From IMG/VR virus record IMGVR_UViG_3300031867_000035, positions 12,296-76,295 of that record: 64,000 nt of DNA; one strand, written 5' to 3'. This stretch comes from a virus. Lineage: Duplodnaviria; Caudoviricetes. The notes below the pieces were generated by a model, which was given only the letters and a program-made list of their open reading frames with translations, was not told the DNA's origin and made no database searches. The translations under genes and the position numbers were made by a program. Shown piece by piece: positions 16,723 to 43,255 of this stretch. How positions within the stretch are numbered: position 1 is the stretch's first letter; every line of letters begins with the position of its first letter.

Positions 16723-16745
16723 AATAATTTTCCTCTCTTTTTATT

Positions 16746-17879: not shown

Positions 17880-17946
17880 AACAATTTCTCCTCGCCTGCT
17901 ATATTTTTTTGTTAAGTATAATGACCGTTGGTTTAGCAGTCTTGCC

Positions 17947-17974: not shown

Positions 17975-18048
17975 TTAGTAGTATGGATTATTTCTAACCC
18001 ATACTACTCGGTTGAATATTTAATTATTGCATTCAACACAAACTTAAA

Positions 18049-18264
18049 TTAAAATTCTCTTATTATTTCATTTCTCTTCATAGCATCATATAATCTGTCT
18101 AAGACAGACTTATCTTCTAAAGCAGCTATCTCTCTAACGGTTAAGAAATACTTTTCTCCACCAAAATTATCTCTGGTGTAATAATACCAAAGTCCATCTC
18201 TTCTGTCTTTAAAAGCGTGCCATACTTCTTTTCCTACATTTAATGTTATCTTTAATTCTTTCAT
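18049..18264 (-). CDS. Hypothetical protein (71 aa)
   Basis: RBS gaggag. Confidence 0.7.
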   Translation of the reverse strand: MKELKITLNVGKEVWHAFKDRRDGLWYYYTRDNFGGEKYFLTVREIAALEDKSVLDRLYDAMKRNEIIREF

Positions 18265-18285
18265 TATTTTCTTCTCCTCTTCTTT

Positions 18286-23423: not shown

Positions 23424-26400
23424 ATGGAAAGAGATTATAAAAACAACAACATTTTTTATGAGAATACCGAAGATTTAAATATCGGTAAGACAAATCAGAA
23501 GCCTGCAGAAGTAGAGCAGTCTACTCCAAAGTTTTCTATCAAGCTTGACAAAGACGAGGAAGCTGCTAGACAACAAGGCTTTTTAAATTTTAATTCAGGT
23601 GTATCAATGATTGATACTTCTGAGTATTCACAATCAGATATTCGTTCAATGTTAGGTTCAAGAACTAAAGTTGATTTATCTGATACAAAAGAAGATACGG
23701 GTACATATAATACTACTAAAGCTTTAGCAGAAGATTATGTTAGTCAAGACGAGGAATATATTACTTCTGGTAGACTGTGGAAAGATATATATGGTTCAAC
23801 CGCCTATGCAGAATTAAAACATAAATGTGGTTTAAGTAAAACTGATTCATATACAGATTATTATAATAAAACAAAATATATACCTAAGGGTTATGAGATA
23901 GAAGCTAAGCTGTTATTAGCTGAAGAAAAAAGAATGAATTATTATATGGAATATAAGAAAGGTAATATATCAAAATCAGATTTCTTATATCAAGCTTATG
24001 GTAAAGATTTAATGAAAGAGGATGGCGTTGATTTATCTTCTCCATTATATTGGTACAATAAAGCAAAGAAGAATGATTTTACTAACCCACTTGATAGTGA
24101 TACATTCTTATCACAATTAATTACAGATTCAGAAAAATTATGGCACGCAGAAACTTGGTATCAATCTGCTGCTACAAGAAATATAGGTTCAACTTTAGCA
24201 GGATTATCTACTGGTTCAGAATTATCAGAAGAAAGTTTCCAAAATGTTTTTAAACAGCAAGTTGAGGCATTAAAACCATATTTCGATAATGATGTTAAAA
24301 AGATTATGACATACTATCAAGCTGGTTTCTTAGGCTCAGCATTCTCACCAATGATAGACATTGACGGAGATGGTAAGTATGACTATTACTATCATAGTGA
24401 TGGTAAACTATATGCAGTAGATGGTTCATCAGGAACTGGTTCATCTACCTGCTCTATTGTTTATAATGATGATGGTTCAGTACATTCAGTACAAGTACAC
24501 GAAGCTGTTGATGGTTGGTTAGATTCTTTATGGGATGGATTCACAGGATTCTTTATCGGCTTTGCAGATTTATTTGCATTAATCCCAGGACTAATTAATA
24601 CAGATGCTATGGCTAATTATGAAGCTTGGAAGAAAAGAACAATAGCAGATGAAGATAGAGTAGTCTTTGATTCTATGGATAAATGGAACGGAGATGACTG
24701 GGGTAACGCTGTAGCTGAAGGTGTAGGTACAATCGCAGGTATGGTTCTATTATTAGTACTTACTTATGGTATAGGTAACGCAATATCAGCAAGTGGTGAA
24801 GCTGCAAAAGCTGGTATGGACGCAGGTCTACAAGGAGCAGTTAAAATAACTTCCCAAGAAACAGCTACTACCTTTGCAGAAAATATTGCTAAAGAAGCTG
24901 CTGATAAATTCACAAGTAAAGCTTTACAAAGAGCTTTTATGGATAACGCTTTAAAAGCTGCAACAAAAGAAATCAGTAAGAATGTTGCCCTAGATGCTGC
25001 TATTAAAACAGCTTTAAAAGAAGGTGCTAAAAAATTTGGTGCTAGTGCTGCGAGAGCTACTGCATTAAATATAGGACGTAATGTCGCTGCTGCAGTTGTA
25101 GGCAAAGGTGGCTTCACTACCACAATCTCTCAAGCTAAGGGTGGTACATTATTAAATACTACATTAGCTAAAGTAGCTCAAAGAAGTTCAAGTACAGGTT
25201 TAAAAAAGATTGCAGCTAACGCTTGGGTACGTAGTAGTTTAACTGCAACTGAATTAGCAGTAAGAGATTATATTACTGTAACAACACAATTAAAAGCCAA
25301 GAACAAAGCTCTACAATATTTAGAGTATGCTACTAAAGGGGAAGTAAAAGCTTTAAGTGATGGTGAGATAGCTGGCAGAGCTTGGCTTGTTGCAGGAACA
25401 GATTTAGTTATTTCAACTATGTTCCGTGCTGTAGGTTCGCAAGGTGCTACATCTAGATTCGTTAAAGACTCTGATACTTTATTAAAAAACATAAATGCTA
25501 ACACTGCAGATGTCATCAATAGGTATGCTCAGCATTTAAAAACATATTGTAGAATAGATGCTGCTTTTGATATTTTTGAAAACATCACTACTTCCGCTGT
25601 TCAAGCTGCAGCAAGTAATCCTTATGCTAAATTAGGCTCAGAAGAATCTTGGGCTACAGCTATGCAATCAATAGTTAACCCTGCTTTCATAGCAAGTAAC
25701 TTATATGCTACATATAACAACTTAGTATCTTGGGGTGGAAGAAATGGTGCTCCAGTAAGTACTTCTATTTATGATGATAGAGTGGAAGCTATTGCAAGAC
25801 AGATTAATATTAGTGCCAATTCTTTGGGAGACCAATTAGATACATTAAGTGAAGCTTTAGTAGCTAAGAATTCAAATGTTTCTAATGTTATTGAAATACA
25901 AGAATCCTTAGATAGAGTTAAGCAAAAAACAATGGAAACATTAAACAATTCTTCTAACTCTAGAATTGATAACTTACTTCAAGCTGCACAAGACTTGGAT
26001 ACTTTATTTACAGAAGATGTAGTTGCTGCTAACAAGAAAGAAATTCTTGATAGTTTTAATATAACCCTTTCAGAATATAATCAAATAAAGGCCTTAATTA
26101 AAACTTATAATGATAACAATCCAGATAAGCCTATTGGTTTAATTACTGGTAAAGTCTTCTACTCTGCTCAAAAAGAAAATGATGCTAATGTAGCTAAAGC
26201 ATATAAGGCTGCTTTAGACTTAATGACCAAGAGAAGCACTGAGCTTAAAGCTAAAGAAGAGCAGGTAGCTAAAATCTTCCTTAAAGGTGCTAGATTTGTT
26301 ATGACTAAAGCAAATGAAGTATCTTTAAAATATGTAAACCAATTAATTGCCGAAACAACTTTCAAAACTTCTGGTGTTCATCTAGAAGAAAGATATCAAA

Positions 26401-29400
26401 AAATAGTAAATACTTTTATAGCTAAAAGATTTGAAATGCTAACTGATATAACTACAGAAGGTAATGAAGAATTAAGAAACAAAGAGTTAGCAGAATTAGA
26501 GACATATTTAAATTCTGAATACTTTAAGTTCCATTCTTTATCTACTTCATCAGCTACAGCAGATGTTTCTTATACAATGGTTCCAGTTTATGATGATAAA
26601 GACAATACTAAAATTAAAACATATAAATTGGATAGCACAGCTACAGGAGATAATATTCTTATTAAGTTATTAAGTAACTACGATAAGAACAAGGCTGTTA
26701 TTGAAGCTCTATGCAATAGATATCATCTTATTGATGTAGTTAAAAATAACGATGGTACTTTAACTATTAATACAGCTAATATGGCTCCTTGGTATGCTCT
26801 TGAATTAGATAATTCAAAGAACAATCAATTATTAGCAGATATTTCTAATAATAAATATTTAAAAACATTTATGGACGTTATAGACTCAGTTGCATATATG
26901 TTTGAAAATTCAGACTTAAATGAATTAAATGTTGTTGATTATGATGAACCTTTAATTCTAAAGTTAAGAGTAGCTACAGGTAACACTAATGGTTCTAATG
27001 AACAAGAATATATCAATATTTATTTGATACCAAGTAAGATAAGTGGCAACATCGATACAGGTACAAGTTATGGTGATGTTGCTAATAGACTTATGGCACT
27101 TCAAGGTATCTTATACTCAACATACGGTTTATTCAAACAAGCAGCTGATGGTGTAGTAAATAATGAATCAGCTGTAAAATATCTAGCACAATTAGGTGCA
27201 TTACTTACAGAAGAAAAAGCAATGGACCCATTCTATGATTTCTTAAAACTATTTAACTCAGATAACGAAGAGGAGAGAAGATTAGCTATAGAAGAGAATC
27301 TACCTAAAGCTGTTATGGCTATATTAAGTAGATGTAAATTTAATATGGTTGATGGTAAAGAGCCTTCTGATTCTGTATTAACTAGAAAGCAATTATTAAC
27401 ATTTGTTAAAGCTGGTGTCTTTGGAGAAAAAGGTGAGTATGCCTTATTAAATAAAATTATTACAGAGAATTCTTCTGGTAAAAATGGTAATGCTTCAGCT
27501 AATAATATTGCTAAGATTGCTCAAGAAATTTTAGACTATGTTAATACTATAGACAAGATTGAGGGTACTCTAAAAATCTTAAACGACTATGCAGAAAATA
27601 CTAAAACTGATTTATCAGCTAATGAAATATCTAAGCTTAAAGATTGTGTTAACACATTAAAAAATAATCAAGACTTAACCGATTCTTTAGATGCAGATGG
27701 TATGTTACCTGACACAATCAAAAGATTATTAAAAGAGAGTACACTTGAAAATTTTTGGCAAGGGTCCCAAAAAAGAGACAGTCATTTGGAAGCCCTATCA
27801 AAAAACTTATTAAGACTGTCAGACAAAAACATCCAAAATCAGGAAGAGCTAAAGACGCTTCTTAAAAAATTCTTAGATGAAGATTTGATGAGTATTCAAA
27901 TTGTTAAAGATAATCCTTTTGAGTTATCAAAACAATTCTTAATTAGATATTTCAACTCTTTTGATAGCTATAAAAACTCTTTTGATAGCTTTAAAAAAGT
28001 ATCATACTTCTTAGAAGCATTAAATACTTCTGATTTTAAAGACTTCTTAAAAAATCCTACAGATTTTATTAATGATTATAATGCCAAAAATTCCGCACCT
28101 GGATATAATATTAAAAATTTCGCTCCTGACTTAAAGTTAGAAGACTTTGGTCATTTATTTATTACTAACGCAAAAGGTGTTAGAAAGACAGATTATAATT
28201 TCTTGTTAGGCTTAACATTAATAAATAAATTCAGAAATGATTTAAGTAAGAATGATTTCGTGGAAGCTTCTTTCTATGATACTGAAACTTACTTAGATTC
28301 TTTATACAATAACGTGATTAAAGACCCTAACTCTGTTGAGTTCCAATATATCAGTAGACTATACAAAATAGCTACCGACAAAGATTTAAATATTCATATG
28401 CTTAGCATATCAGACCCAACAGCTAAAAATTACAAGAGACCTTTCAGTACTTTAATGGTACATAATGCTGATGGCACAACAGAGAGTATTGGGGATTTAA
28501 TTTATAAAAGTAATAAAGCTGCATCTGTTCTTGTAGAATCTATAGTAGATGATGCTATAGAAAGTAAGATGGAACTATTACAAGATGGTATAGACTATTA
28601 CTGGAGGGATACTACAGTTACCCCAAAACAAAATGTTATTGAGATAGATATGCTAAACTTCTTACCAGCTAATTTAAGAATAGCTTTAAAGTCTTTCTTA
28701 AATAGTAGTGACCTAGCTACAAAGATGGGTGCAGAAGCAAAAATTAAATCTGAAGAACTTGCTAAAGAATTTAAAAATTTATTAGCAGGACATTCTTCAA
28801 ATGCTACTTATTCACAATATAAAGCTTATAAAGTTTTACTTTCTGATTGTTTAGCTTCTGGTAATTTCATATTAAGATATAACGTAGATAACGCTGCATC
28901 TATGAATAGTTTAAAAGTTTTCTTAACTTCTTGTGGTTATGATAACTTTGATGTTGATGCTGCAAGAAACGGCATATCTGAAATAGAAGGATTAAATTTC
29001 AAAACAGTAGATACTCATAACATTAATTCAACTTTAGCAGCAGAAAAATTCTATCGTGCTGCAAGATTATATAAAACAAAGTATGGTATTGCAAAGCCAA
29101 TATTAGGTGAGAAGATTAAAAAGAACTACACCAATGTTCTATTCAATTTATTCTCGGGAATAACAAAATTTAATGATGATACTAATATACAGCTTCTTGA
29201 TGAAGATGGTAAAGCAATTCCTTATTACAGTATTATTTATAAAAAAACTGACCCTAACAAAGCATACACTTTCGTAAATGCTTTTGGTAATACTGAACAA
29301 GCACGTTCTGAAAAAGGTACATTAAGTGGTGGTGCACAGACATTACAATATATAAATAAGTATAGAGGATTAGGTATAGATGTTAAAGATGATAACTTAT

Positions 29401-32400
29401 CTTTAGATTCAAAATCTTTTAAATCATTTACAATAGTTAGATTAGCAGAAAAGACTGCTGAATACTTAAACAACTTAACAGGTAAACAAGCTCAAACTAT
29501 TCAAGTAACAATACCTAAAGCTGAGCAAGACACATTCAAAGAGATGTATGAGGATGGTAAAGGTTTCTTTAAAATAATGGGTGAACCTGAAGGAGATACA
29601 TTTAGACTAGAGCCTACTTATAAATCTGCAGAAGAGTTCTTGGCTTATGTTAATGAAGAAGGCTTTGATATAAGACAAGTCTTACCTGTTGTTTGGAATA
29701 ATGATAAATCAATTAAGAATACAGAGTTTAGAGCTTATGAATATATAAGTAATGAAACTTTGTTTTCCGAGTTAGCTAATTTAAAGATTGAAGGATTAAA
29801 AACTATTGATGATTTTATTAACTTCCAACCTATCCCTAAAGATGAAATATATAGTTTTGATTCTAAAGAATATTCAGATTTCTGTTTAGCACACTCTAAT
29901 AAGAATGTAGGAAATATTCTACAAGATTTGGGTGATATAAAAAATAATTATTATTTAGCTTGTCTAAAATATGAATTAGGACTTTCAAAAGCTTATTCAG
30001 ATTATGCTATTAGTTATCTAGGCCAAGATGCAGACTTAATTGATTTAGCTAATCCTAGAATTTATAAGATACTAGGTTCATTATTAAATGATGGTTCAAG
30101 TTTAGATGAATACAAATTCAGCTACTTATTAAATAAGAACTATACTATAACAGAAGATGATGTTAATAAATTACTTAAAGCTTTAAACGAAGGTATAACT
30201 AATTCAGAAAATATCTTTCCAGAGCAAGCTACTGATACAGATAATGTAGATACAAAAAATAATTTCACTTCACTTGACGTTGAAAAACTTAACTCATCTA
30301 ACAACGTATCATTAGATATTAAAAAGGAAACTATAGCTAAATTATTAGATGTACTAAGAAACTCTGAAGATTATTTAATTACTAGATTATCAGAACCCAT
30401 TGATTTAGTTCAACCAGATAATTTAATTTCTTGCTTAGCATTATTCTGCGAAAATTCTGGAGGTTCATTGTCTATTCCTATGGAATACTTAATGCGTTCA
30501 TCAAAGAAGCAACGAGAAGCATTCTTTACATTCTTAAATGCTATTATCGCAAATCCAACAGAATATAATTTTAGTGATGATGATATTAAAAAGTTAAACG
30601 ATTTAATAACATTATTAAATACTAAAATAGATTTAATGACTAAAATAAATCCTACTAAAGATGTAGATGTTAAACCTGCAAGAGTTATATTTGAAAAAAA
30701 TGCTGTAAGTGCTCCAAGAGTAGGTGTAGAACCAAAAGCTGGTTTCTTAAGTAATGGTACTGGTAAACTATCGAATGCACAATTACAAAGAATAACAGAT
30801 TATATAGTGGCAGCAGAAAATAATAAAGTTGACGTTGCACCATTCATTAAGTTATCTAGTATTAATCCAAATGATAGTGTTGTAGAAACTCCTTTCAAAC
30901 ACAGCTTAATCAAATTATTAAATGCAACAGTATGTAAAAATTCCGATAAACCAGGTTCAACTATGGTTTATAATATGGATAGTGATGAAGCTATAGTTAA
31001 TGCATTAGTAAGTGTTCTTGCTTTTACAGAAAACACTAAACTATTATTGCAAGATTTAGGTGTGCCTGAGATTCAAAAAATTCCTTTAGATATATTAATG
31101 GAGTTAGGTTTAAAAGCAAATCTATTAACTACTGGTGCTGACTACCAAGCAGAGTTCGCATCATCCCTTATTCTAAAATGGAATAAAGAAACTAACGAAT
31201 ACTCAATAGTTCCTTTAAGAACTTCATCATCAGATACAGAACAAAGTTTATATAGATATTTCTTAGGCTTAAAGACTGGTGATTCTGATGTTAATGATAT
31301 AACTTTAAAAACAATAAACGAAGATATAGCTAATAATCCTACCCATTATTTCTTATTATCTTCTTCAAAAAATGCTTTCTTAGAAAGTCCTGATGGTTAT
31401 AACGAAACAACAAGACTTCTATATTTAAATGATATCAATGTTCAAAAGAGCTTAAGAGAAAATATGGTTAAAAAAGCAATTATAGCTAGAGATGGATTTG
31501 TACTTAATGTTCCTGGTGAAAATGATTTAATGAATTTATTAGATTCATATTATAATGTTCACGCAGTAACAACTTATGATGTATGGAGAAATGTTGTTGA
31601 TTCTCTACGTACATTAGGCGTATCAGATTCTGTTGCAGACTTATTGTATCCTACAGTAGAGAGTTTATATGTAGGCAACCCATCTTCTTTAAACGACCAA
31701 TGGATACAAGATACTCTAGCAGAATTCATTGACAGCTATAAAGGTAAAGTTCCTTCAGTACAATTCAAAATTTTCTCAGATGCAATAGCTTGGGGAATAA
31801 CTAATAGGGTATTAAAAGCTCAAGATATAGCAGCTTTAAAGAATAATGAAATTGAAATAGAGGCTGCTTATAGAGAAACTCAATTAAAAAAAGGCATAAC
31901 TCAAAAAGAAATATCTAATAATACAGAACGTGTAGAAGCTATAATAGATTCTATCAAATCTAATGATACAGATATAATAGATTATGCAAAGCAAAATATT
32001 AAATCATTAGATAAGGATACTCAAGTATATCTAATTCAAAAATTATTATTAGATAGAAAAGATGGTTTTGATTTATATGCTATTCTTAATATGAGCTCAA
32101 AAAATAAAACGTTATTTGATATTTCAGAAAGTATAAGACCTACTATTAATAACGAATTATCAAATGACTGGGTTCATTCTCCTAAGAATAAAAGTAAAAA
32201 CATTACTGCCACAAATGTAGTATCAGATACAAATCACGTTGTTTATGATGCTGAATGGTTTATACCAGAAAAAGATAAGAAAAATAGTTTTACAGATGTA
32301 TATCAAATAGGCTTATGCTTACGTAAAGCTGTTAATGATAAAGATAAAGCTAGAATTATTGATAGCGATACATTAAATAATTTAGAGAAGCATAATATTT

Positions 32401-35400
32401 TAATTAAAAAGAATATTATGAACAACAAAAATAAATTATATGTTGAAGCTAAAGATTCTTATGATGCAAAGATAAAAGCTTGTACAAGTGGTAAAGATAC
32501 TTATGTAGACTCAAAAACAAATGTTATTTACCATATAATCGATGGTGGTCCTAATTCTACATTAGAGGATGATGTTAGATTAGCTTATACTACATTTGCT
32601 AAAATTATAAATGATAATGATGTATCTGTAATTATGTCTTACGGTGGTAAGAATGATAATAGAGAAGAAATAAGTGATAACAACTTAATAAGACACTGGT
32701 TAGGTGATGCTTTCTTTAATGATGTAGATGAGCTAGATATATTAAATGATGTAGCTTACAAAGTGTGGTCACGTACTACAGAAGATATGACTTCTTATTC
32801 AATGGATTCAATGCGTAGAGAAGGTAAGATTAATTTAAATAACTCTCTTTTAGAACACGATGCAGTATCTGATAGTTTAGATGAATATGAGTTATTTGTT
32901 AAAATAATTAATAACAAAATTAATATAGATAACTTATACTTAAAGCCTTTATCTGACATTGCAGAATTATTTGGTGAAGATGTAGATTACAGAAATTGGT
33001 CTGATGATTTCAAGAATACTTTGAAAGCTGTTAAATTTAATGAGTTAAAAGATATAACAGATAACTTAAAAGATATTGTATCTAAAATAGATATAGATAC
33101 TTCAGTTTTTACAAGAAGTAATGAAGCTATAAAATCTGTTATGGATGCTTATAAATTAACATTCGAACACGTATGGAGAAGAATGGAATTTAAAGATTTA
33201 GAGAAAGTTAGAAATAACTTCCTAGATATTTATGATTCAAGTTATAATTCAACTTACTTTGCTTCTATTAAGAATAAAAAACATAGAACAGAAGTTAGAA
33301 ACATTCTTCTAGGCATTGTAAACGAAAGATATGATTTAAATGAAGGTTTCTCTGCTGTATTGGAAAGAGACCCTGTAACTAACAAATTTAGAACATCTGA
33401 TATTAAAGGTGTAGAAAATTTAAAAACCGCTTTAAAGTATATGACTTCTATATTAGCCGAAGCCGCAAGACTATATAAAGAGGATACAAAAAATCCTTAT
33501 AATCCAAAATATATTTCAAACAGAAATAAAACAAAGTCCTTCTATTCAGAAGATGCACAGACTATAGCAAGATATATTGCTGAAGCTAAAACAACTTTTG
33601 AAATTACAGACTTAGATGCAAGACGTAGTAAAAGAAATGACTTTAAGCAAAATGAGAAAACTTTAACACAGGCTGTAATAGATTCAAAGTTTAATTTAGA
33701 TAATAATACATCTGAAGCCTTAAGAGATATATATTCAATGTTAAGAGATGAATCAACTGATTTGCTTTCATTGAAAGATTATAAGCATACAGTAACTAAC
33801 CAAGATTTTTATATCCAAATTGCTAGACCTTTGGCTAATGTATTAGGTATTAATGTTCAAGATTCTGACGCTACAGCATCAGATGAAGTTGTTTCAAAAA
33901 CATTCTCCGATAAATTAAGAGCTGCCTTATTCAATGATTTACTAAGTGTATATGGTAGAACAAATGCAGGTAAGAGAACTCACGAGCAAATAATAAAAGA
34001 TAATACTTACAATGGAATAAGACATACCTTAATAGATAAAGCAGATACTTATAAAAAAGGAATGATTGAGGCATTTACTTCTAGTAAGGGTTTATTTACA
34101 GGTAACTTAAGAACTAAAACTGCTTTATGGTCAATGGGTCACGAAAGATATAAGAAGACAATGACTGGTGAATATGGTACTTTATATATAGGCGAAAAGC
34201 TTCTTACTTCTAAGAAAGCATTTAAAGATTTATTTGGTATGTATAAAGCCACATATAAAACAGATAGTAATGGTAAGCAAGTTGTTGACTATGATGATAA
34301 CAATCAAAACACTTTCTATACTTTAGTATGGAGACAACCATTACAGCAAGAAACTCCTATTCAACTTATGAAAGTTAAAGTTGTTGATGGTGATACATTC
34401 TCTATGACAACCACAACTGCCGATAACTTCTTTAATGGAGACTTCGATGGAGACCAATATTTCTTCTCTCATCCTTCTCAAATAACTAATACTAAAGAAG
34501 CTAAGAGATTATTTGAGCTTCAAAACAAACAGACAGAATTATTCTATAATCTATTTAAGAAGGATAATAAATTAACGCTTACTAATCAAATCTTATTAGA
34601 AGAAAAATATAGAAATTTAGCTAGAGATGTATTCTTAAGCAGTAACGTCCAAAGTGCTTTTAAGGCTATATTTGCTAACATTGAATTATCTAGAGATAGT
34701 ACAGGTAAAGCAACTAAAGTTAAAGACCTTCCTATATTCTTAGGTGATGCCACATTAATAGATAAATTTAAACAGGAATATTATAAAGCCTTTGATACAA
34801 TAGTTACTTCAAAAGAATATAATCAACTTTCTATTGAAGATAGAGAAACATTAAGAGATTCATTCCTCGAAAACTTTGGTGTAAGAATAATTAAAACTTC
34901 AAAAGGTACAACAGTTCTTTCTGACAATCCATTCTATCGTGAGGATAGAGATACTACTATGAGATTAAAAGCAACTAGAAAATTCTATATGCTAGATAAC
35001 CTTTCTAATAGTGGTATGGATGCTCCAGAAAATGGCCAGTTGGCAAAGAACTATAAATGGCAAAAAGGTTCTGTTGATATGAATGAGGCTTATAGATTAT
35101 TCTACAATTCAACATTCTCTTTAAAAGAAGATGACTTACATTTATTTAGTAACTTACTTGCTAAAGAAGGTAACTCATTAAGCTCTGTAAAGATAAACAA
35201 ATATCTAGATTCTTTATCATCTTTAATAGGTAAAGATATGGTTGACTGGGCTAAAGAATATGTTGACAAAGAAATAATAACATACGTTGAAGAACAGCAT
35301 AAGTTAGGGGTTAAAGATGCTCAAACTTATAACATAGTTGTAAGAAGATTATCTAATTTAAGTAATGCTATTCAGCAAAATATAATAACTTCAAAAGAAT

Positions 35401-38400
35401 ATAATGATGTATTAAATGCTTTATTACCAAAAGTTTTAGCAGTAGGTAATGAAGAAGATTACCAAAAGTATAAAGCACTTCATTCCTTTATGTATAATGA
35501 AGGATACATATCTGATAAAGACCCTAGAGGATTCTCTTCAGAAGTTCTTCAAAAACCAGAAGGTGATAAGCTTAACAATGGTATAGATATTCTTGTTGAA
35601 GATACTTATCTATTTAATAAACTATTTGATGATGAACAAAGAAAAGGATATATAAATACTATAAGTAATGACTCAGGAACTTTACAAGATTTATATCTTA
35701 ACTTTATATTCAGAGGTGATAATAAAAATGCAAACTTTGAGTATAGAGATGGTGCAGAAATTCTTACAAGAGATACTATCACTTCTTTAAAAGGTAAGAG
35801 CAATAAGCTTCTAGGTTTAGGTTCAGCTTATGTTGCTATTGATATATCTGAAGATGGTTCATTAACAGATACTATTGCTTTATTCAATAATGGTCAGAAC
35901 TCTTTATCATTTACTAAACCTGTAGAAATAAATTTCTCTGGATTAACTAAAAAGCAAAAAGATAATCTATTAAATCTAATTAAGAATACACGTGGAAATT
36001 CTATTATCAAGAGTGAGGATATAAGTAGAGCACTTAATACAAACTTTGATAATAAGCCTTATCAAATAGCAGGCTTTGTAGATTCAGTGGGTAATTCTCT
36101 ATTAAATAATTTAAACAATTTATCTCCTTCAACTTTAAACCACGCTAAATTAATTCTTTTAAACAGAACGCCACTATACGCTATGCTAGAAACAAATGAA
36201 ATTAAACTAGGTATGGTAGGTTCAAAAGCTTTAAAAGGTACAGTAATGAATGGTTTAAATCTAGAAGGCAGAGGAGAGAATACTATATCAGTAAAAGAAT
36301 CTAAAAAGAATAAAGATGTAGTTGCTACTGCTAAAGACAGAACTAAAGCTATTAGACCAGACTTAGCTATCAGTGCCAGCTTATTCAAAGATATTAATAG
36401 TGATTATAATCTAGATTACGAAGAAGTACTTACAACTACTGATGGTAGATATAGAATAATAAAAGTAAACGACTTAGCAATTCTTAATGCTTTAAATTTA
36501 GATGCGCAAGATAGAGCAAGCGAACGTTACATAGATACAATCGGTATAGTTCAAGGTGCCCACGGTACAGGTTCTCTATTCAGTTATGGTAATATGTTCT
36601 TAAGATTCGATGCTGATAATAACAAATGGGAATTCGACCCTCAAGGCTATAATGAATTAAAAGATAGATTACATTATCATAATTTAGAATCCTCTTATAT
36701 GGATGGTAATGGTGCAAGAAATGTAAGACTACTAAGAATAGCTTACTTACTAGATGCTTTATCAGAAGATAAGAGACAAAGAGTATGTATGGAGATTCTT
36801 GGTAATACATCAGTTCCTACAATAGAGGCCGCCTTAGAATGTATTTATTCTGCAGGTGATTTAGGTGGAGATTTTGGTGAAGACCTTGAAGCTCATATCT
36901 GTGACCAATTATCAAAAGAAGAGTTTGAAAAACTAGCTCTTAGACTTAATTCAACTTCTAAGAAAAATTTATTAGGTAGAGTTGCATTTAGTGAAGAAAT
37001 GAATGACCAATTAGTCAATAGGTATGCTACATTCTTTAATGAGGATGTTAATAATCCTATAATTAAAAAGCATCAAAAACCTTCAGACAATGTGAGAGTA
37101 TCTAATGTTAGAAACTATTCTGATAATGCTGATTACTTAGCTAGACACGAAGGTAGTACTCACGATACTAATACTTCTTATGTTTCAAAAATTTCTTTAT
37201 TAAGAACTATTCTTGAAGAAAACGGAGGCTTCTTAAATCTTGCAACATTAAAATCTGCAGCTGATGAAGATATAATAAATATAGCAGATGGCTCACTAGG
37301 TACTTTATATAATGGCTATAAGTTTACTGATGCTAGAGAGAGCTTAGCCTTAGACCCTTATGATGAAGAAAAACAATCATCTAAAAAGGCAGGTAACAAA
37401 GAGCCTTCTTCTCAATATAATGAGGTAAGAGATAATCAAAGATTAATACCTTTATTATCTAAAAGTGTTTTAAGTGATAGTTATAAAGATTCATTAACTA
37501 ATGCTAACGCAGATATATTATTAAATAACAATTTATATCAAGATGCAGCTGCTTATAATCAAGCTAGATTTATGCTACCTTTCTTCTCAGAAGGAACTGA
37601 TTCACAGATATATGATGCTACAAACCTATTCTCTAATAGATTCGTTGACTCATTACATCAAAAATATCCTACAATGAATGAAGAAGGTCAGCTAAGAATA
37701 GGTACTAAAACATTCAAACCAGAAGTAAATAAGGAAACTAATATGCTTAGCCATTTAACAATGGAAGAAGAGGAACAGAGAATCATTCAAAACTCTAAAT
37801 CTCCTAAGCAAGTTAAGTTACTATTAGAAAAGCATAAAGAGATTACTGACCAGCTAACTAAAGAAGATTATGAAACTTTAGGTTTAACAGACCAATTAGC
37901 AGTGGCAGACTTAATTTCTAAAACAGGTAATTCTAAAATAATGTCTTTCTTAAATGAGCTTTGTAAAGAGTATGACATTAAGACAGAGTATGAAAACTAT
38001 AATACTACTCCTGTCCAAGGCGACCCATTCTCCTTACTAAGAGCTATAAGAAGAGATAATAATGATGTACTACACGTTGCTGAATTCTATTCAGATGATA
38101 ATGGTGTTAAGCTAGTAAACTCTTGGCTTAGAAGCTGGGGTTTCAAATCTTCAGATAATAGAGATATATCTTTAGGTAATCAAACAATCAATGCCAGAAA
38201 TAAATTCGCTGATGTAAAAGACCAATTACTTGGTGATGATTATGCCTTATTAATGTATAATGCTAAGCACAACAAAGCTTCCTATATGTTATTAAATCAG
38301 TATATGAATGCTGAAGAATTAATTGAAGCTTATGATGAATTAACTTATAGACAAGATGTCTGGGTAAAGACTTTAGGTAGAGACAAATATACCGAGTATT

Positions 38401-41400
38401 TAAATGAAGTTAATAGACTTATTGATGGAGATATAAATTCTCTAAGAAATAAGCAACAAGAAATACTAAAGAGTCATCCAACATTATCTATCTTAGTAAA
38501 AGCAGCAAGCAGAATAAATAAGAGACTTATGCTAGAAACAAGAGCACAAGACCCTTATGCATTCTTAGGTTGGTTTACAGATTTAGATTATGGCACTAGA
38601 CCACACTTACTAGGTTATAAAAATGTACAAATAAAAACATTTGTAAAAAATGATTTCATTAAGGGGTTAAACTTTGATTTAGAAAAAATGCCTGAATCTA
38701 AGTTAGCTTCTATCTTCCATTCAAAAGATTACGGTTATGTTCCTATGGTTGAGAAGATAGCTTCACAATTAGCAGCTGCTAAAACAACAGACAGTCTTGC
38801 TAAGTATATGAAGTCAGCTGGTTATATGCAAAATGTTGATACATTTAATATAGCTATGGACACTTTACAACAAACACTTGATAAGTATTTCGAGACTTAT
38901 ATATCAGAACCTGGTAATGATAGAGAAAATAACAATAGAGCTACATACGACACATTAGTTCAACAATGCTCTTTAGCTGGAATCGATATGTATGATGTAG
39001 GAGACTATGCAGATGAATCTTCTATATATGATTTATTTAAATACTTATACAGAATTAACGTTGAGAATAAAGAAAAATTAGGTATGGCTGGATTAGGTTC
39101 GGCAGATTATACTCAAGAACTATATCAAAGATTAATTAATGCTAATGATTCTCAAAAGAATATTTATAAGACTGCTTCTAAAACTAATGAAATACTATTA
39201 AGTATGACTTCTGTATTAGTTAATATGATGGAAGAACTTGATTCAAATAAAACATTATTAAAAGATATTAACAATTCTTTATTAAAGTTAGAATCAAATG
39301 GTAAAGTATTAGTTGATAGATATGGTCAAAAAGTTAATAGAGGTAAGTTAATTAATGATTATTCAAGTTGGCACATTTTTGAAGACTTCTTACATTTAGC
39401 TTCAAGAGATTTAGATAACAGAGATTATCTATCAACTTACATTGCTAAACAAGCATTAGAAGGTAATGTATACTTAATGGATTCATCAGTAGCAGACCAA
39501 CTAGAAAAGAAAGTATTTACTAAACGTATTCATTCTCAAGTGAGTGAGGCTATTAAAAAAGCAAAAGCAATAGCTACAACATTAGTAATGTCTTCACCTG
39601 TCCAGTTATTAGACAGAATGATTAACTTCCCTATGTTTGATATAGGAGTAACTGGTTCAGCAGATGTAGAAACATTTAAATATATGCCTACTGCTATTTC
39701 AACAGTAACTAAATTCATACAAGGTGGTGATTACTTAACAGAGGATGATATTGCAAAAGATGATAATATGAAACTTCTTTTAAGATTCTTATCTGCTCAA
39801 GGTAATTTAGATATTAAGAATGCAACAGTTCGTGGCGAAAGAATATCCGTAACAAATATTCCAGGTATTAAACAATACTTAAAATTAGTTAATACAATGT
39901 ATCAAGCAGGAAATTTAATTCCTAGATTCGCTTACTTTATGAACCTAGTTAATAGTGCTGATATTAATTATAAGATTGCTAAAAACAAAACTGGTGTTGC
40001 TTATCATCTATATGATTCAATAGTAGGTGTTGAAGGAGATAAAGCTACTGGTATCAAGTCTTATATTGATAATCCTGAAAAAACTCCTTATTATAAAGAG
40101 TTCGGTGAAAACGCTAAGAATGTGGCAGACCTAGATGCACAAGCTGTACAAATCATAGCAGAGCATAATGGTATCGAAGGTAATATGCCTTATGCAGCTA
40201 GATGGTTAAACGAGAATTATAATACAATGTTCTTAACATTCCCTATGGCTTTAATGCGTTGGGGTAAGAATAGACTTCAATCTCTAGGCTATGCATTTAT
40301 GGAATCTGATTCTACAGACGTAAACTACTTATTAAATCAAGCAAAGAGTGTATTAATAACTCAAACTATTTTACTTGCAATTCAAATCTTATTATCTCAA
40401 AATACTCAAGAATATCTTAAAAAGAAATTAACAGGTAAGGACGATGAGATAACTGAAGAAGAAGAGGAGAATGCACAGAATATATTATTCCGTGGTGGCT
40501 GTGTAAAGTTATTTGAATCAGCATTAAAAGGTGAAGAAGTAACTACAACGGCTCAGAATAGAGGACCAGCATCTGGTTTATTCAACAGCTATGTAGCAGA
40601 CTTTATTCCAGCATTTAATGATGGTCAAAAATTTATGACTACATTAAAGAATCAATTAGTATCTCACACTTGGGGTCACGTACCTTTTGTAATTAAAGAT
40701 ACAGTTGAATCTATCCCAGGTAACACTGCATTACAATCTGCTTCTTGGTACGTACCAGGTAATAACTTCTTCGAAAACTATGGTAGAAAGATACTTGGTT
40801 ACAATTTAGGTTCTACTCAAGCTAATGCATTTATAGATTACTTACAAGCTCATAATGCTAATAATGATTTAAATGAGTCAAGTGTAGCTAGATTACGTAA
40901 TGCTATGTCGTATGCATTTAGCAAAAAATATTCTAATTTAAAAACAAACAAATCAGAAGTAAGAAACTATAAGAAAGCTTTTGAATTAGTTTATAATTAT
41001 TTAGATACAGTATATGGTAATTCATCAATTACTTCTGCTACTACATCAACTAATAAAGATTTAAAATCTGAATTAAGAAAAGCAGTAGAAACTTCTAACT
41101 CATCTGCAGATGTATATTATACAATTCAGAGAGCTATATCTAAAGGAAGTTCTTATTCAGATATTCAAAAAGCTTTAAACTCTATATCTTTAAGAGAAAG
41201 ATTATTAACTCTTAGAAATTATAATGCATTTATAGATTCACTTGATAGTAGTGAAAAAGCTACAATCAAAACTGCATTACTATACGAAGAAGAAAATTAT
41301 CCTTACTTGGAAGATATATTAACCGATGTTAATAATAAAGCTCACAAAGAATATCTAAATTCTAACGCTTCTTATAGTTCTAGAAATGTAGCTTCTATAT

Positions 41401-41672
41401 TAAAAAGTATGGCTTACAATACTCCAACTTATTATAATTACAACTCAAATCGAAATAATTATATTAGTCAAGCTAGATTCTTAAATAATTACAATAAATC
41501 TTATAGTAATTATCAAAAGCAGCAACAAGATGCTTATGAAAGAATGCGTAACATTGTTGACTATGGTACTTCAAAAGATATTTGGGGTACTGAAACTCAA
41601 CATTACAAAGATGGTACATCCTATACAAAGAAAGATAGAGGGTACAATCCATTTAAAGGAGGCAATAAATAA
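23424..41672 (+). CDS. 6082-aa polyvalent virion protein: membrane segments + DEDDh exonuclease + two-barrel RNA polymerase
   Basis: VWRQP...NGDFDGDQ (aa ~3635-3678), KGLFTGNL, LGLGSAYVAI...TDTIAL, KLGMVGSKALKG, RPDLAIS, LNLDAQDRASER; exonuclease VVYDAEW...EHDAVSD; next to terminase/portal/capsid genes. Confidence 0.85.
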   Translation: MERDYKNNNIFYENTEDLNIGKTNQKPAEVEQSTPKFSIKLDKDEEAARQQGFLNFNSGVSMIDTSEYSQSDIRSMLGSRTKVDLSDTKEDTGTYNTTKALAEDYVSQDEEYITSGRLWKDIYGSTAYAELKHKCGLSKTDSYTDYYNKTKYIPKGYEIEAKLLLAEEKRMNYYMEYKKGNISKSDFLYQAYGKDLMKEDGVDLSSPLYWYNKAKKNDFTNPLDSDTFLSQLITDSEKLWHAETWYQSAATRNIGSTLAGLSTGSELSEESFQNVFKQQVEALKPYFDNDVKKIMTYYQAGFLGSAFSPMIDIDGDGKYDYYYHSDGKLYAVDGSSGTGSSTCSIVYNDDGSVHSVQVHEAVDGWLDSLWDGFTGFFIGFADLFALIPGLINTDAMANYEAWKKRTIADEDRVVFDSMDKWNGDDWGNAVAEGVGTIAGMVLLLVLTYGIGNAISASGEAAKAGMDAGLQGAVKITSQETATTFAENIAKEAADKFTSKALQRAFMDNALKAATKEISKNVALDAAIKTALKEGAKKFGASAARATALNIGRNVAAAVVGKGGFTTTISQAKGGTLLNTTLAKVAQRSSSTGLKKIAANAWVRSSLTATELAVRDYITVTTQLKAKNKALQYLEYATKGEVKALSDGEIAGRAWLVAGTDLVISTMFRAVGSQGATSRFVKDSDTLLKNINANTADVINRYAQHLKTYCRIDAAFDIFENITTSAVQAAASNPYAKLGSEESWATAMQSIVNPAFIASNLYATYNNLVSWGGRNGAPVSTSIYDDRVEAIARQINISANSLGDQLDTLSEALVAKNSNVSNVIEIQESLDRVKQKTMETLNNSSNSRIDNLLQAAQDLDTLFTEDVVAANKKEILDSFNITLSEYNQIKALIKTYNDNNPDKPIGLITGKVFYSAQKENDANVAKAYKAALDLMTKRSTELKAKEEQVAKIFLKGARFVMTKANEVSLKYVNQLIAETTFKTSGVHLEERYQKIVNTFIAKRFEMLTDITTEGNEELRNKELAELETYLNSEYFKFHSLSTSSATADVSYTMVPVYDDKDNTKIKTYKLDSTATGDNILIKLLSNYDKNKAVIEALCNRYHLIDVVKNNDGTLTINTANMAPWYALELDNSKNNQLLADISNNKYLKTFMDVIDSVAYMFENSDLNELNVVDYDEPLILKLRVATGNTNGSNEQEYINIYLIPSKISGNIDTGTSYGDVANRLMALQGILYSTYGLFKQAADGVVNNESAVKYLAQLGALLTEEKAMDPFYDFLKLFNSDNEEERRLAIEENLPKAVMAILSRCKFNMVDGKEPSDSVLTRKQLLTFVKAGVFGEKGEYALLNKIITENSSGKNGNASANNIAKIAQEILDYVNTIDKIEGTLKILNDYAENTKTDLSANEISKLKDCVNTLKNNQDLTDSLDADGMLPDTIKRLLKESTLENFWQGSQKRDSHLEALSKNLLRLSDKNIQNQEELKTLLKKFLDEDLMSIQIVKDNPFELSKQFLIRYFNSFDSYKNSFDSFKKVSYFLEALNTSDFKDFLKNPTDFINDYNAKNSAPGYNIKNFAPDLKLEDFGHLFITNAKGVRKTDYNFLLGLTLINKFRNDLSKNDFVEASFYDTETYLDSLYNNVIKDPNSVEFQYISRLYKIATDKDLNIHMLSISDPTAKNYKRPFSTLMVHNADGTTESIGDLIYKSNKAASVLVESIVDDAIESKMELLQDGIDYYWRDTTVTPKQNVIEIDMLNFLPANLRIALKSFLNSSDLATKMGAEAKIKSEELAKEFKNLLAGHSSNATYSQYKAYKVLLSDCLASGNFILRYNVDNAASMNSLKVFLTSCGYDNFDVDAARNGISEIEGLNFKTVDTHNINSTLAAEKFYRAARLYKTKYGIAKPILGEKIKKNYTNVLFNLFSGITKFNDDTNIQLLDEDGKAIPYYSIIYKKTDPNKAYTFVNAFGNTEQARSEKGTLSGGAQTLQYINKYRGLGIDVKDDNLSLDSKSFKSFTIVRLAEKTAEYLNNLTGKQAQTIQVTIPKAEQDTFKEMYEDGKGFFKIMGEPEGDTFRLEPTYKSAEEFLAYVNEEGFDIRQVLPVVWNNDKSIKNTEFRAYEYISNETLFSELANLKIEGLKTIDDFINFQPIPKDEIYSFDSKEYSDFCLAHSNKNVGNILQDLGDIKNNYYLACLKYELGLSKAYSDYAISYLGQDADLIDLANPRIYKILGSLLNDGSSLDEYKFSYLLNKNYTITEDDVNKLLKALNEGITNSENIFPEQATDTDNVDTKNNFTSLDVEKLNSSNNVSLDIKKETIAKLLDVLRNSEDYLITRLSEPIDLVQPDNLISCLALFCENSGGSLSIPMEYLMRSSKKQREAFFTFLNAIIANPTEYNFSDDDIKKLNDLITLLNTKIDLMTKINPTKDVDVKPARVIFEKNAVSAPRVGVEPKAGFLSNGTGKLSNAQLQRITDYIVAAENNKVDVAPFIKLSSINPNDSVVETPFKHSLIKLLNATVCKNSDKPGSTMVYNMDSDEAIVNALVSVLAFTENTKLLLQDLGVPEIQKIPLDILMELGLKANLLTTGADYQAEFASSLILKWNKETNEYSIVPLRTSSSDTEQSLYRYFLGLKTGDSDVNDITLKTINEDIANNPTHYFLLSSSKNAFLESPDGYNETTRLLYLNDINVQKSLRENMVKKAIIARDGFVLNVPGENDLMNLLDSYYNVHAVTTYDVWRNVVDSLRTLGVSDSVADLLYPTVESLYVGNPSSLNDQWIQDTLAEFIDSYKGKVPSVQFKIFSDAIAWGITNRVLKAQDIAALKNNEIEIEAAYRETQLKKGITQKEISNNTERVEAIIDSIKSNDTDIIDYAKQNIKSLDKDTQVYLIQKLLLDRKDGFDLYAILNMSSKNKTLFDISESIRPTINNELSNDWVHSPKNKSKNITATNVVSDTNHVVYDAEWFIPEKDKKNSFTDVYQIGLCLRKAVNDKDKARIIDSDTLNNLEKHNILIKKNIMNNKNKLYVEAKDSYDAKIKACTSGKDTYVDSKTNVIYHIIDGGPNSTLEDDVRLAYTTFAKIINDNDVSVIMSYGGKNDNREEISDNNLIRHWLGDAFFNDVDELDILNDVAYKVWSRTTEDMTSYSMDSMRREGKINLNNSLLEHDAVSDSLDEYELFVKIINNKINIDNLYLKPLSDIAELFGEDVDYRNWSDDFKNTLKAVKFNELKDITDNLKDIVSKIDIDTSVFTRSNEAIKSVMDAYKLTFEHVWRRMEFKDLEKVRNNFLDIYDSSYNSTYFASIKNKKHRTEVRNILLGIVNERYDLNEGFSAVLERDPVTNKFRTSDIKGVENLKTALKYMTSILAEAARLYKEDTKNPYNPKYISNRNKTKSFYSEDAQTIARYIAEAKTTFEITDLDARRSKRNDFKQNEKTLTQAVIDSKFNLDNNTSEALRDIYSMLRDESTDLLSLKDYKHTVTNQDFYIQIARPLANVLGINVQDSDATASDEVVSKTFSDKLRAALFNDLLSVYGRTNAGKRTHEQIIKDNTYNGIRHTLIDKADTYKKGMIEAFTSSKGLFTGNLRTKTALWSMGHERYKKTMTGEYGTLYIGEKLLTSKKAFKDLFGMYKATYKTDSNGKQVVDYDDNNQNTFYTLVWRQPLQQETPIQLMKVKVVDGDTFSMTTTTADNFFNGDFDGDQYFFSHPSQITNTKEAKRLFELQNKQTELFYNLFKKDNKLTLTNQILLEEKYRNLARDVFLSSNVQSAFKAIFANIELSRDSTGKATKVKDLPIFLGDATLIDKFKQEYYKAFDTIVTSKEYNQLSIEDRETLRDSFLENFGVRIIKTSKGTTVLSDNPFYREDRDTTMRLKATRKFYMLDNLSNSGMDAPENGQLAKNYKWQKGSVDMNEAYRLFYNSTFSLKEDDLHLFSNLLAKEGNSLSSVKINKYLDSLSSLIGKDMVDWAKEYVDKEIITYVEEQHKLGVKDAQTYNIVVRRLSNLSNAIQQNIITSKEYNDVLNALLPKVLAVGNEEDYQKYKALHSFMYNEGYISDKDPRGFSSEVLQKPEGDKLNNGIDILVEDTYLFNKLFDDEQRKGYINTISNDSGTLQDLYLNFIFRGDNKNANFEYRDGAEILTRDTITSLKGKSNKLLGLGSAYVAIDISEDGSLTDTIALFNNGQNSLSFTKPVEINFSGLTKKQKDNLLNLIKNTRGNSIIKSEDISRALNTNFDNKPYQIAGFVDSVGNSLLNNLNNLSPSTLNHAKLILLNRTPLYAMLETNEIKLGMVGSKALKGTVMNGLNLEGRGENTISVKESKKNKDVVATAKDRTKAIRPDLAISASLFKDINSDYNLDYEEVLTTTDGRYRIIKVNDLAILNALNLDAQDRASERYIDTIGIVQGAHGTGSLFSYGNMFLRFDADNNKWEFDPQGYNELKDRLHYHNLESSYMDGNGARNVRLLRIAYLLDALSEDKRQRVCMEILGNTSVPTIEAALECIYSAGDLGGDFGEDLEAHICDQLSKEEFEKLALRLNSTSKKNLLGRVAFSEEMNDQLVNRYATFFNEDVNNPIIKKHQKPSDNVRVSNVRNYSDNADYLARHEGSTHDTNTSYVSKISLLRTILEENGGFLNLATLKSAADEDIINIADGSLGTLYNGYKFTDARESLALDPYDEEKQSSKKAGNKEPSSQYNEVRDNQRLIPLLSKSVLSDSYKDSLTNANADILLNNNLYQDAAAYNQARFMLPFFSEGTDSQIYDATNLFSNRFVDSLHQKYPTMNEEGQLRIGTKTFKPEVNKETNMLSHLTMEEEEQRIIQNSKSPKQVKLLLEKHKEITDQLTKEDYETLGLTDQLAVADLISKTGNSKIMSFLNELCKEYDIKTEYENYNTTPVQGDPFSLLRAIRRDNNDVLHVAEFYSDDNGVKLVNSWLRSWGFKSSDNRDISLGNQTINARNKFADVKDQLLGDDYALLMYNAKHNKASYMLLNQYMNAEELIEAYDELTYRQDVWVKTLGRDKYTEYLNEVNRLIDGDINSLRNKQQEILKSHPTLSILVKAASRINKRLMLETRAQDPYAFLGWFTDLDYGTRPHLLGYKNVQIKTFVKNDFIKGLNFDLEKMPESKLASIFHSKDYGYVPMVEKIASQLAAAKTTDSLAKYMKSAGYMQNVDTFNIAMDTLQQTLDKYFETYISEPGNDRENNNRATYDTLVQQCSLAGIDMYDVGDYADESSIYDLFKYLYRINVENKEKLGMAGLGSADYTQELYQRLINANDSQKNIYKTASKTNEILLSMTSVLVNMMEELDSNKTLLKDINNSLLKLESNGKVLVDRYGQKVNRGKLINDYSSWHIFEDFLHLASRDLDNRDYLSTYIAKQALEGNVYLMDSSVADQLEKKVFTKRIHSQVSEAIKKAKAIATTLVMSSPVQLLDRMINFPMFDIGVTGSADVETFKYMPTAISTVTKFIQGGDYLTEDDIAKDDNMKLLLRFLSAQGNLDIKNATVRGERISVTNIPGIKQYLKLVNTMYQAGNLIPRFAYFMNLVNSADINYKIAKNKTGVAYHLYDSIVGVEGDKATGIKSYIDNPEKTPYYKEFGENAKNVADLDAQAVQIIAEHNGIEGNMPYAARWLNENYNTMFLTFPMALMRWGKNRLQSLGYAFMESDSTDVNYLLNQAKSVLITQTILLAIQILLSQNTQEYLKKKLTGKDDEITEEEEENAQNILFRGGCVKLFESALKGEEVTTTAQNRGPASGLFNSYVADFIPAFNDGQKFMTTLKNQLVSHTWGHVPFVIKDTVESIPGNTALQSASWYVPGNNFFENYGRKILGYNLGSTQANAFIDYLQAHNANNDLNESSVARLRNAMSYAFSKKYSNLKTNKSEVRNYKKAFELVYNYLDTVYGNSSITSATTSTNKDLKSELRKAVETSNSSADVYYTIQRAISKGSSYSDIQKALNSISLRERLLTLRNYNAFIDSLDSSEKATIKTALLYEEENYPYLEDILTDVNNKAHKEYLNSNASYSSRNVASILKSMAYNTPTYYNYNSNRNNYISQARFLNNYNKSYSNYQKQQQDAYERMRNIVDYGTSKDIWGTETQHYKDGTSYTKKDRGYNPFKGGNK

Positions 41673-43255
41673 TGGCACAAACAATAGTTATAACTCCTAA
41701 CTATAAGCCTACTCCAAAACAAATATTATTACATAACGCTCCTGTATCTTACGATGATATTTGGATTATATGTTATGGCGGTGCAAGAGGTGCTGGCAAA
41801 TCTGCTGGCATCCTTGCCGATGCTTTTATGTTTTGTCAAACTTATCCTGGTGCAAAATGTTGTATCCTACGTGAAACCCTAGATGCTGTTAAGCAGTCTT
41901 TCTTGGATAAACTACCAACATTATTTCCACCAGAAGTTAATGGTATAAAGATATATGAGTACAAAGAGAAATCTAGTTCTTGGTATCCTTCACGTTCTAT
42001 AGTTTTCCCTAATGGTAGCTACATTACCTTGCAGCGTGTTGCAAACTATCAAGAAGCTAAAGCAAAGCAAGGATGGGAATTCCATTACTTAGCTATCGAT
42101 GAAGTAACTAAACAAGAAAAACGTACAGTTGATTATCTATTAACCTGCGTACGTTCCGCCACGGTATTAAATAAATATACAGGTAAACCTATTCAGATTC
42201 CAACTAAGGTTGTGTTTGGATGTAACCCTGGTGGTATAGGACATAAGTGGGTAAAAGAAAGATTTATCGATACAACAGTAGTAAAATATGATGAGCATAA
42301 AACACCTATCCAAACTAAAGACCATATTGAATTTGTTCAAGACCCTAGAGACGGTCATTGGATAAAGAGATTTGTTAGATTCATACCAGCATCCTATATG
42401 GATAACCCTTATCTAAATGCTTCTTATGTAGCTAACCTTGAGTCTTTATCTGAACATCAAAAGCAGATGGATATGTATGGTAACTGGGATGTAGTAGCTG
42501 GAAGATATTTCGATTTAAAGCCAGAGCAATTACTTCCACCACAATCTATAGCACAAGACTTAGAGAGACTTGCAGGCCACGTAGAAATTTTTGCTTCAAT
42601 AGACTGGGGTTACAAACCTTCCTATTATTGTTGTTTATGGCACGCAGTATTCCCTGACCATAGAGTTATCACTTTTAAAATACTATATGGACAAGAACTT
42701 GTCTTTGAGGATTTTGTAAAAGAGATAGCAAAAGAATCTGAGAAGTTTGAAATTTCAGCTACGTGTTTACCTCACGATATGTTCCGTGGTGGTGATAGGT
42801 ATAGAAATGATACTGGAAAAATAATAGGTGAAACTAAATCAGATGTATTTGAATTCTATGGATTAAATCCTATAGGCGTAGAATCTGGTAAAGGTAAAGT
42901 AATGATGAGATATGATAAAATACATTCAGCAACTACCCTAAAGAATCCTGATGGTGTTTATAAGTTCAGGATATCCACGGCTTGCACAGATTTAATTGAA
43001 GAATTAAACAATGCAGTTCACGATGATGATAATCCTGAATTGATTGCACCTAAGTGTAAAGACCACGCAATAGATGCTTACGGTCATTTCCTAGTATTTT
43101 ATTCTGATGACATTGAACCTCTAGGCTTTGAATCTTTAACAAAAGACAATAGAACATATCTTCAGATTTTATTAGATGAAGATGAAAAGAAACTAGAAGA
43201 AGAGGAGGAAGATGAATACACAATTAGTGTTGATAGTATTTTCGATTTATGTTAA
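41672..43255 (+). CDS. terL: Terminase large subunit
   Basis: Walker A YGGARGAGKS, Walker B LAIDEVT, GCNPGG, nuclease ASIDWGY and DHAIDA. Confidence 0.95.
   Translation: MAQTIVITPNYKPTPKQILLHNAPVSYDDIWIICYGGARGAGKSAGILADAFMFCQTYPGAKCCILRETLDAVKQSFLDKLPTLFPPEVNGIKIYEYKEKSSSWYPSRSIVFPNGSYITLQRVANYQEAKAKQGWEFHYLAIDEVTKQEKRTVDYLLTCVRSATVLNKYTGKPIQIPTKVVFGCNPGGIGHKWVKERFIDTTVVKYDEHKTPIQTKDHIEFVQDPRDGHWIKRFVRFIPASYMDNPYLNASYVANLESLSEHQKQMDMYGNWDVVAGRYFDLKPEQLLPPQSIAQDLERLAGHVEIFASIDWGYKPSYYCCLWHAVFPDHRVITFKILYGQELVFEDFVKEIAKESEKFEISATCLPHDMFRGGDRYRNDTGKIIGETKSDVFEFYGLNPIGVESGKGKVMMRYDKIHSATTLKNPDGVYKFRISTACTDLIEELNNAVHDDDNPELIAPKCKDHAIDAYGHFLVFYSDDIEPLGFESLTKDNRTYLQILLDEDEKKLEEEEEDEYTISVDSIFDLC

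Follow-up and report, generated by a model that had tools for sequence, protein, structure and literature searches.

A predicted DEDDh 3′-5′ exonuclease module beside a putative two-barrel RNA polymerase in giant proteins of an uncultured phage family

Why would a phage place a DnaQ-like 3′-5′ exonuclease in the same polypeptide as an RNA polymerase? The question is raised by P0001, an open reading frame (ORF) of 6,082 amino acids (aa) at positions 23424–41672 (+ strand) of a 64,000-nucleotide stretch of Caudoviricetes DNA (positions 12,296 to 76,295 of the 76.3-kb IMG/VR virus record IMGVR_UViG_3300031867_000035; the whole stretch is referred to as the window). A sequence-only reading of the window had proposed that this ORF carries an intact exonuclease of the DEDDh type, named after its catalytic residues, upstream of a virion RNA polymerase. 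Judged by its motifs, its relatives and a structural model, the segment spanning residues 2921–3170 (positions 32184–32933, + strand) is almost certainly a genuine, catalytically competent DnaQ-like DEDDh 3′-5′ exonuclease with an RNase H-like fold. The earlier placement at 32235–32900 was correct as to location and slightly too narrow in extent, the ends given here being set by an in-frame deletion in a relative (L049, see below).

Motifs, fold and conservation of the exonuclease module

Direct inspection of the translation located every motif quoted in the sequence-only reading at the residue given there: VVYDAEW starts at residue 2939, YQIGL at 2960, MSYGG at 3071, ELDIL at 3103, SYSMDSM at 3124, EHDAVSDS at 3144 and YELF at 3155, with D3085 lying within ISD and the polymerase motif GDFDGDQ starting at 3672. 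Exo I consists of D2942-x-E2944 (32247–32255, + strand, as are all features of the module) and falls on strand 15–22 of the structural model described below, the first strand of the core. Some 140 aa separate D2942 from D3085 of Exo II, which reads Y3073-G-G...D3085-N-N-L-I (32640–32690) and contains a six-residue loop insertion and a Gly in place of the usual Asn. The ELDIL strand with D3105 (32730–32744) is the counterpart of the 'iDTl' strand of DEDDh enzymes and forms an invariant column in alignment A2. Exo III, H3145-D-A-V-S-D3150 (32856–32873), is an H-x4-D motif and supplies the histidine that is the 'h' of DEDDh.

To recover related giants, the gene for the terminase large subunit that follows P0001 was used as an anchor, and DNA upstream of related terminases was retrieved (260 terminase homologues). 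Each retrieved locus held a giant ORF of 5,248–6,428 residues that ended at the terminase. Conservation was assessed in the 35 giants in which the exonuclease region was covered; 33 of them share less than 90% mutual identity, and the median pairwise identity over the segment is 16.5% (in alignment A1 the sequences had diverged too far to be scanned for patterns). At this distance D2942, E2944, H3145 and D3150 are invariant (35/35). The D3085 column holds Asp in 33 giants and Glu in two, and D3105 is matched by Asp in 32, the remaining three having an Asp that the aligner placed two columns off. Asn occupies its Exo II column in 33 of the 35 and Gly in two; the window's copy has the Gly, and the subgroup to which it belongs has the six-residue insertion. 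In relatives L026 and L075 Exo II reads Y-N-G-D-N-F/Y-E, with Glu for Asp and the remaining catalytic residues retained. Scarcely any other position of the domain is invariant. Because the catalytic residues are kept at such low identity while little else is, the module is best read as an active enzyme rather than a relic. Hence, the catalytic residues predicted from the window alone are not only present but also conserved among homologs.

Searched with Pfam and PHROGs, the window's own domain gave no match. Its relatives did: Pfam RNase_T (PF00929) matched five of 12 family members (best E 6.3e-6; the window's copy stayed below threshold), RNase_H_2 matched four of 12, and DEDDh_C or Rv2179c-like was matched by other members of the family. 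Several relatives carry textbook motifs, such as L002 with D-V-E, then G-F-N-S-D-K-F-D, then S-H-D-A-A-Y-D, and Exo II of the canonical relatives takes the form N-x-x-x-F/Y-D. A profile built from seven canonical divergent relatives alone had a single significant match in the 6,082-aa protein, residues 2926–3170 (30.9 bits, domain E 1.4e-11 at Z=1). This family profile links relatives recognized by Pfam to the window's copy, which is thereby assigned to the DEDDh family transitively. When compared with all PDB sequences, the family profile retrieved DEDD-type exonucleases only (best E 1.1e-4), among them the ε subunit of DNA polymerase (Pol) III, the PolC exonuclease, TREX1 and homologs, RNase T, CRN-4 and exonuclease domains of PolB enzymes. 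The columns aligned in these matches were Exo II, 'DTL', 'sLD' and H-x-A-x-x-D. The ELDIL strand aligned with 'vDTL' of TREX1-like and PolC exonucleases, and the stretch with H3145 and D3150 aligned with the H-x4-D (HGALLD) of E. coli ε.

Structure prediction led to the same family. While a single-sequence AlphaFold model of the domain was unusable (predicted local distance difference test score, pLDDT, 32), AlphaFold (AF2) provided with a 12-sequence alignment returned an RNase H-like α/β fold with a pLDDT of 80.7 and a predicted template modeling score (pTM) of 0.85. Compared by VIA-align with 48,161 solved chains, this model had DEDD exonucleases as all of its best 50 matches, including the Pol ε exonuclease domain (Z 12.5), E. 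coli ε (Z 12.3), ExoI, TREX1, 3′hExo, RNase T, Cap18, Cas2-DEDDh and nsp14. Foldseek searches against the PDB (best E 2.7e-5) and against viral models (BFVD) again returned exonucleases. In the model, D3085 opens a helix (162–170), and the last long helix begins at H3145 and D3150, an arrangement also seen in ε. The superposition on E. coli ε (DnaQ; PDB 1J53; PF00929) covers 167 residues, the solved chain having 174, at a root-mean-square deviation of 3.7, and the two share D-x-E, N...D, iD(T)l, sLD and H-x-A-x-x-D column for column. The DEDDh pattern that had been read from the sequence alone is thus borne out by the family profile, the PDB alignment and the predicted fold.

The polymerase partner and a natural deletion variant

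The proposed position of the exonuclease upstream of a β′-type polymerase motif was confirmed: Pfam PF00623 (RNA_pol_Rpb1_2) matches at NGDFDGDQ (34434–34457, + strand), the catalytic motif of two-barrel RNA polymerases, with an E of 4e-6 and 27.6 bits against a cut-off of 25.3. All 19 relatives compared retain GDFDGD, with its three Asp, and an R-x-P ahead of it; these are the main invariants of the 730 residues that come after the exonuclease. Between the exonuclease and this motif lies a stretch of ~500 aa (32934–34433, + strand) with constant spacing, the distance from the Exo III His to GDFDGD being 402–535 residues in all 35 giants. Bacterial β′ has roughly 460 residues before NADFDGD. 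Since the two lengths match, the exonuclease appears to adjoin the start of the β′-like half, and the ~500-aa stretch presumably represents the N-terminal part of that half. From its sequence, the partner is thus a putative single-chain two-barrel RNA polymerase, with the exonuclease directly ahead of its β′-like half. A complex prediction for the exonuclease together with the following 731 residues scored 0.00 and gave no answer either way.

The sequence-only reading had also asked whether homologous giants keep the pairing, and 35 of 36 do; in each of the 35 that have the module, exonuclease and polymerase reside in the same polypeptide. When 1.8 billion representative proteins were searched exhaustively, the only matches besides P0001 were two full-length giants, both with all motifs retained, and one fragment. 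Searches of IMG/VR with the single domains returned either nothing or only L005, an unrelated small exonuclease gene. Fused forms of 488–2,000 aa were not found, which is weak evidence.

The one giant that departs from the rule, L049 (contig AUXO010597904.1; L049:1-10000), lacks the exonuclease domain while its ORF stays open. Residues 3–528 of L049 align with residues 2386–2920 of the window protein and residues 524–969 with 3171–3686, such that 250 residues (2921–3170) are cleanly missing in frame. The rest of the 21.5 kb available for this locus contains no DEDDh domain. L049 thus represents a loss, since the module is present in every other lineage, even where terminase identity is down to ~45%. 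The deletion shows the module to be a separable cassette, and the polymerase lineage to be viable without it in cis; the exonuclease is therefore probably an accessory module.

Genomic setting of the giant ORF and other features of the window

P0001 lies directly upstream of the gene for the terminase large subunit (41672–43255, + strand; matches to PHROG 979 and PHROG 2), the first gene of a head/tail block in which genes for a portal of the SU10 type, a capsid protein and tail fibers come next. A hydropathy scan of the giant protein revealed two hydrophobic segments in its N-terminal part (aa 372–393 and 427–458; 24537–24797, + strand) and one near its C-terminus (aa 5640–5658; 40341–40397, + strand), possible membrane-insertion elements of an ejected protein. 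Based on its position in the structural block, these segments and the analogy with known giants discussed below, the protein is probably ejected into the host. The remainder of the genome encodes a family A DNA polymerase (PolA) with a 3′-5′ exonuclease domain of its own, DnaG-type and D5-type primases, an SNF2 helicase and a PD-(D/E)XK nuclease.

Evolution is far quicker in the giant proteins than in the genes around them: between phages with terminases of ~80% identity, the giants are ~24% identical. Terminase identity among the phages of the recovered giants reaches down to ~45%. Among deposited phages, tblastn searches with the domain, the polymerase region and one canonical relative found nothing useful, and the best terminase match to deposited phage genomes had an identity of only ~28%. 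Bacillus phage 0305phi8-36, considered on a guess as a cultured carrier of a similar fusion, had no PF00929 or PF00623 match. The phage family is thus common in metagenomes, uncultured and without relatives among deposited phage genomes.

Several further features were recorded in the window and in its relatives. One terminase relative, P0098 (862 aa), contains a LAGLIDADG_3 domain (PF14528), and at another locus (L059:699-2760) 526 matched residues are spread across 2,062 nt. Both observations point to insertion of an intein or homing endonuclease in the terminase of some relatives. A minus-strand block, presumed to be early, holds three paralogous genes (15679–19155, − strand), each encoding pentapeptide repeats followed by a DUF5758 domain. 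The window also encodes a Cpn60/GroEL-like chaperonin (1621–3135, + strand; Pfam Cpn60_TCP1, E 5e-33) and a protein of 765 aa whose C-terminal part is a von Willebrand A domain (5190–7487, − strand).

Possible roles and relation to known systems

Given the DEDDh residues and fold, two-metal hydrolysis from a free 3′ end can safely be inferred. In such a reaction, D2942, E2944, D3085 and D3150 would coordinate a pair of Mg2+ ions, H3145 would serve as the general base, and nucleotides would be removed singly. We further infer activity, substrate, packaging in the virion and coupling to the polymerase; packaging is suggested by the adjacency of the gene to terminase, portal and capsid genes, and by analogy. 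On balance we favor, tentatively and with rather less than even confidence, that the exonuclease trims the 3′ ends of nascent RNA for the polymerase to which it is fused. It would thus serve the polymerase in cis, shortening the RNA upon misincorporation or backtracking. Such trimming would substitute for Gre/TFIIS-assisted cleavage, which is absent from minimal single-chain two-barrel polymerases, and would prevent stalling of early transcription and of any transcription-coupled DNA entry. The role would be helpful yet not indispensable.

Several observations incline us to a role at RNA 3′ ends. Established exonucleases joined to polymerases edit the 3′ end of the product, as in the PolA, PolB and PolC fusions and in the complex of coronavirus nsp14 with the RNA-dependent RNA polymerase (RdRp). 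In the giants, both the pairing and the spacing stay fixed through extreme sequence divergence. Moreover, YonO, a single-chain two-barrel polymerase that has no trigger loop, showed no RNA cleavage (PMC5467207). A function that is useful yet dispensable, comparable to that of Gre factors, is also consistent with the loss in L049. A part in replication was considered and rejected: the phage has a PolA in addition to primases and helicases, and since this PolA carries its own exonuclease domain, the module is not needed as replicative proofreader.

Several points weigh against this reading of the module and of its role. The window's own copy goes unrecognized by Pfam and PHROGs, and the sequence does not reveal whether the substrate is RNA or DNA; DNA and RNA exonucleases occur among the structural neighbors at tied Z scores. 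In cellular polymerases, the β′ N-terminus is close to the clamp and the RNA exit and distant from the secondary channel, through which a backtracked 3′ end emerges; such a geometry may be ill suited to editing. In addition, the fidelity of transcripts matters little for a few early genes. Finally, L049 demonstrates that a polymerase lineage can do without the module.

The alternatives differ in the nucleic acid on which the enzyme would act. The exonuclease might work on the entering phage DNA, at a 3′ terminus or at nicks, where it would either give the fused polymerase a single-stranded template or promoter or make the genome end ready. We consider this unlikely, though its fixed position beside the polymerase would suit such a task, the nearest structural matches act on DNA (PolB exonuclease domains, ε, ExoI, TREX1, ExoX and DinG) and the N4 virion polymerase requires single-stranded promoter hairpins. 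In the same vein, gp66 of a crAss-like phage is efficient on single-stranded or denatured DNA and weak or inactive on native double-stranded DNA (bioRxiv 10.1101/2020.03.07.982082). A 3′-5′ enzyme at a duplex end, however, destroys the very strand needed for reading inward, and with only the 5′-ended strand left, transcription could proceed outward to the end only. The clean loss in L049 would also be difficult to tolerate if making a template were an essential step, and the record has no defined terminal repeats or genome ends.

About equally improbable, in our estimate, is that the module does not serve the polymerase at all and is instead an independent cargo enzyme of a polyvalent ejected protein, directed at 3′ ends of host DNA or RNA or at immune signaling oligonucleotides. 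Giant ejected phage proteins commonly bear several unrelated enzymatic domains for host conflict (PMC5512222). A separable cassette lost by one lineage resembles accessory counter-defense modules, which are often lost in this way, and the defense-linked Cap18 as well as oligoribonucleases are among the structural matches. Yet counter-defense modules usually turn over quickly, whereas this one is retained in 35 of 36 giants at a fixed site and with invariant catalytic residues, and Pfam and PHROGs detected no further recognizable effector domain in the giant protein. Very improbable, by contrast, is a non-cutting structural remnant comparable to the exonuclease-like domain of Pol α or to Exuperantia. 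Although the window's copy is missed by Pfam and has both the six-residue Exo II insertion and the Gly for the usual Asn, dead exonuclease folds lose their catalytic residues, while here each of the 35 giants retains all five catalytic positions, with an Asp-to-Glu change at Exo II in only two, at a median identity of 16.5%. Trimming of nascent RNA for the fused polymerase hence remains the role that we favor.

Fold and chemistry of the module are ordinary, and phage giants with two-barrel polymerases are known; what sets P0001 apart is the combination. In contrast to E. coli ε, the domain is part of a 6,082-aa phage protein and stands beside an RNA rather than a DNA polymerase, with a longer insertion separating Exo I from Exo II and the six-residue loop inside Exo II. 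Family B polymerases, whose exonuclease domains (yeast Pol ε, 4M8O; RB69 gp43; HSV-1 polymerase) are the best Foldseek and VIA-align matches, likewise have exonuclease and polymerase in one chain. They are DEDDy enzymes with a Tyr in Exo III, however, whereas the giants have an invariant His (DEDDh) and a two-barrel RNA polymerase as partner.

On the polymerase side, gp66 of phi14:2, a crAss-like phage, and gp96 of Thermus phage P23-45 are very large proteins with a two-barrel polymerase and a DxDxD-type motif, encoded among structural genes and presumably brought in along with the DNA so that early transcription can begin; unlike in these, the motif in P0001 is the cellular-type NGDFDGDQ. The papers on gp66 (bioRxiv 10.1101/2020.03.07.982082) and on P23-45 gp96 make no mention of 'exonuclease', and a search for the word found none in an N4 ejection-protein paper, a crAss genomic survey or a Crassvirales review. 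In the paper on polyvalent proteins (PMC5512222), 'exonuclease' occurs in the reference list only and 'DnaQ' not at all, and our literature searches found no paper combining 'DEDDh' with 'two-barrel'. This agrees with the earlier statement that no characterized virion polymerase is known to have such a domain; a published description of a DEDDh exonuclease fused to a two-barrel polymerase was not found.

Two further systems bear on function. The coronavirus pair of nsp14 ExoN (matched at Z 9.1) and nsp12 also combines a DEDDh exonuclease with an RNA-synthesizing polymerase and is, to our knowledge, the sole established case of RNA 3′-end proofreading by a dedicated exonuclease. There, nsp14 is a separate subunit that acts with an RNA-dependent right-hand polymerase in genome replication, whereas in the giants a single chain would unite the exonuclease with a two-barrel transcriptase that is DNA-dependent. 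GreA/GreB and TFIIS offer a functional analogy only, as non-essential helpers that shorten the RNA 3′ end of backtracked polymerases. They have no nuclease fold and reprogram the active site of the polymerase through the secondary channel, while the module would use an active site of its own.

All cell-type RNA polymerases known to us correct or rescue themselves through their own active site, aided by Gre or TFIIS. The giants of this family may conceivably represent the first DNA-dependent, cell-type two-barrel RNA polymerase with a built-in exonuclease for editing or rescue that replaces this route, although we regard so strong a claim as doubtful. If it held, a dedicated 3′-5′ exonuclease on a cell-type RNA polymerase would be a second, independent solution to the same problem, in parallel to the proofreading of DNA polymerases and to nsp14, and transcription would come to resemble DNA replication, with its polymerase-plus-editor design, more closely. 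With a deletion variant found in nature and a cassette of 250 residues that has sharp boundaries, the question is directly testable. Even if entering DNA or host nucleic acids were the target, the module would constitute a conserved enzymatic activity that this phage family probably delivers at the first moment of infection.

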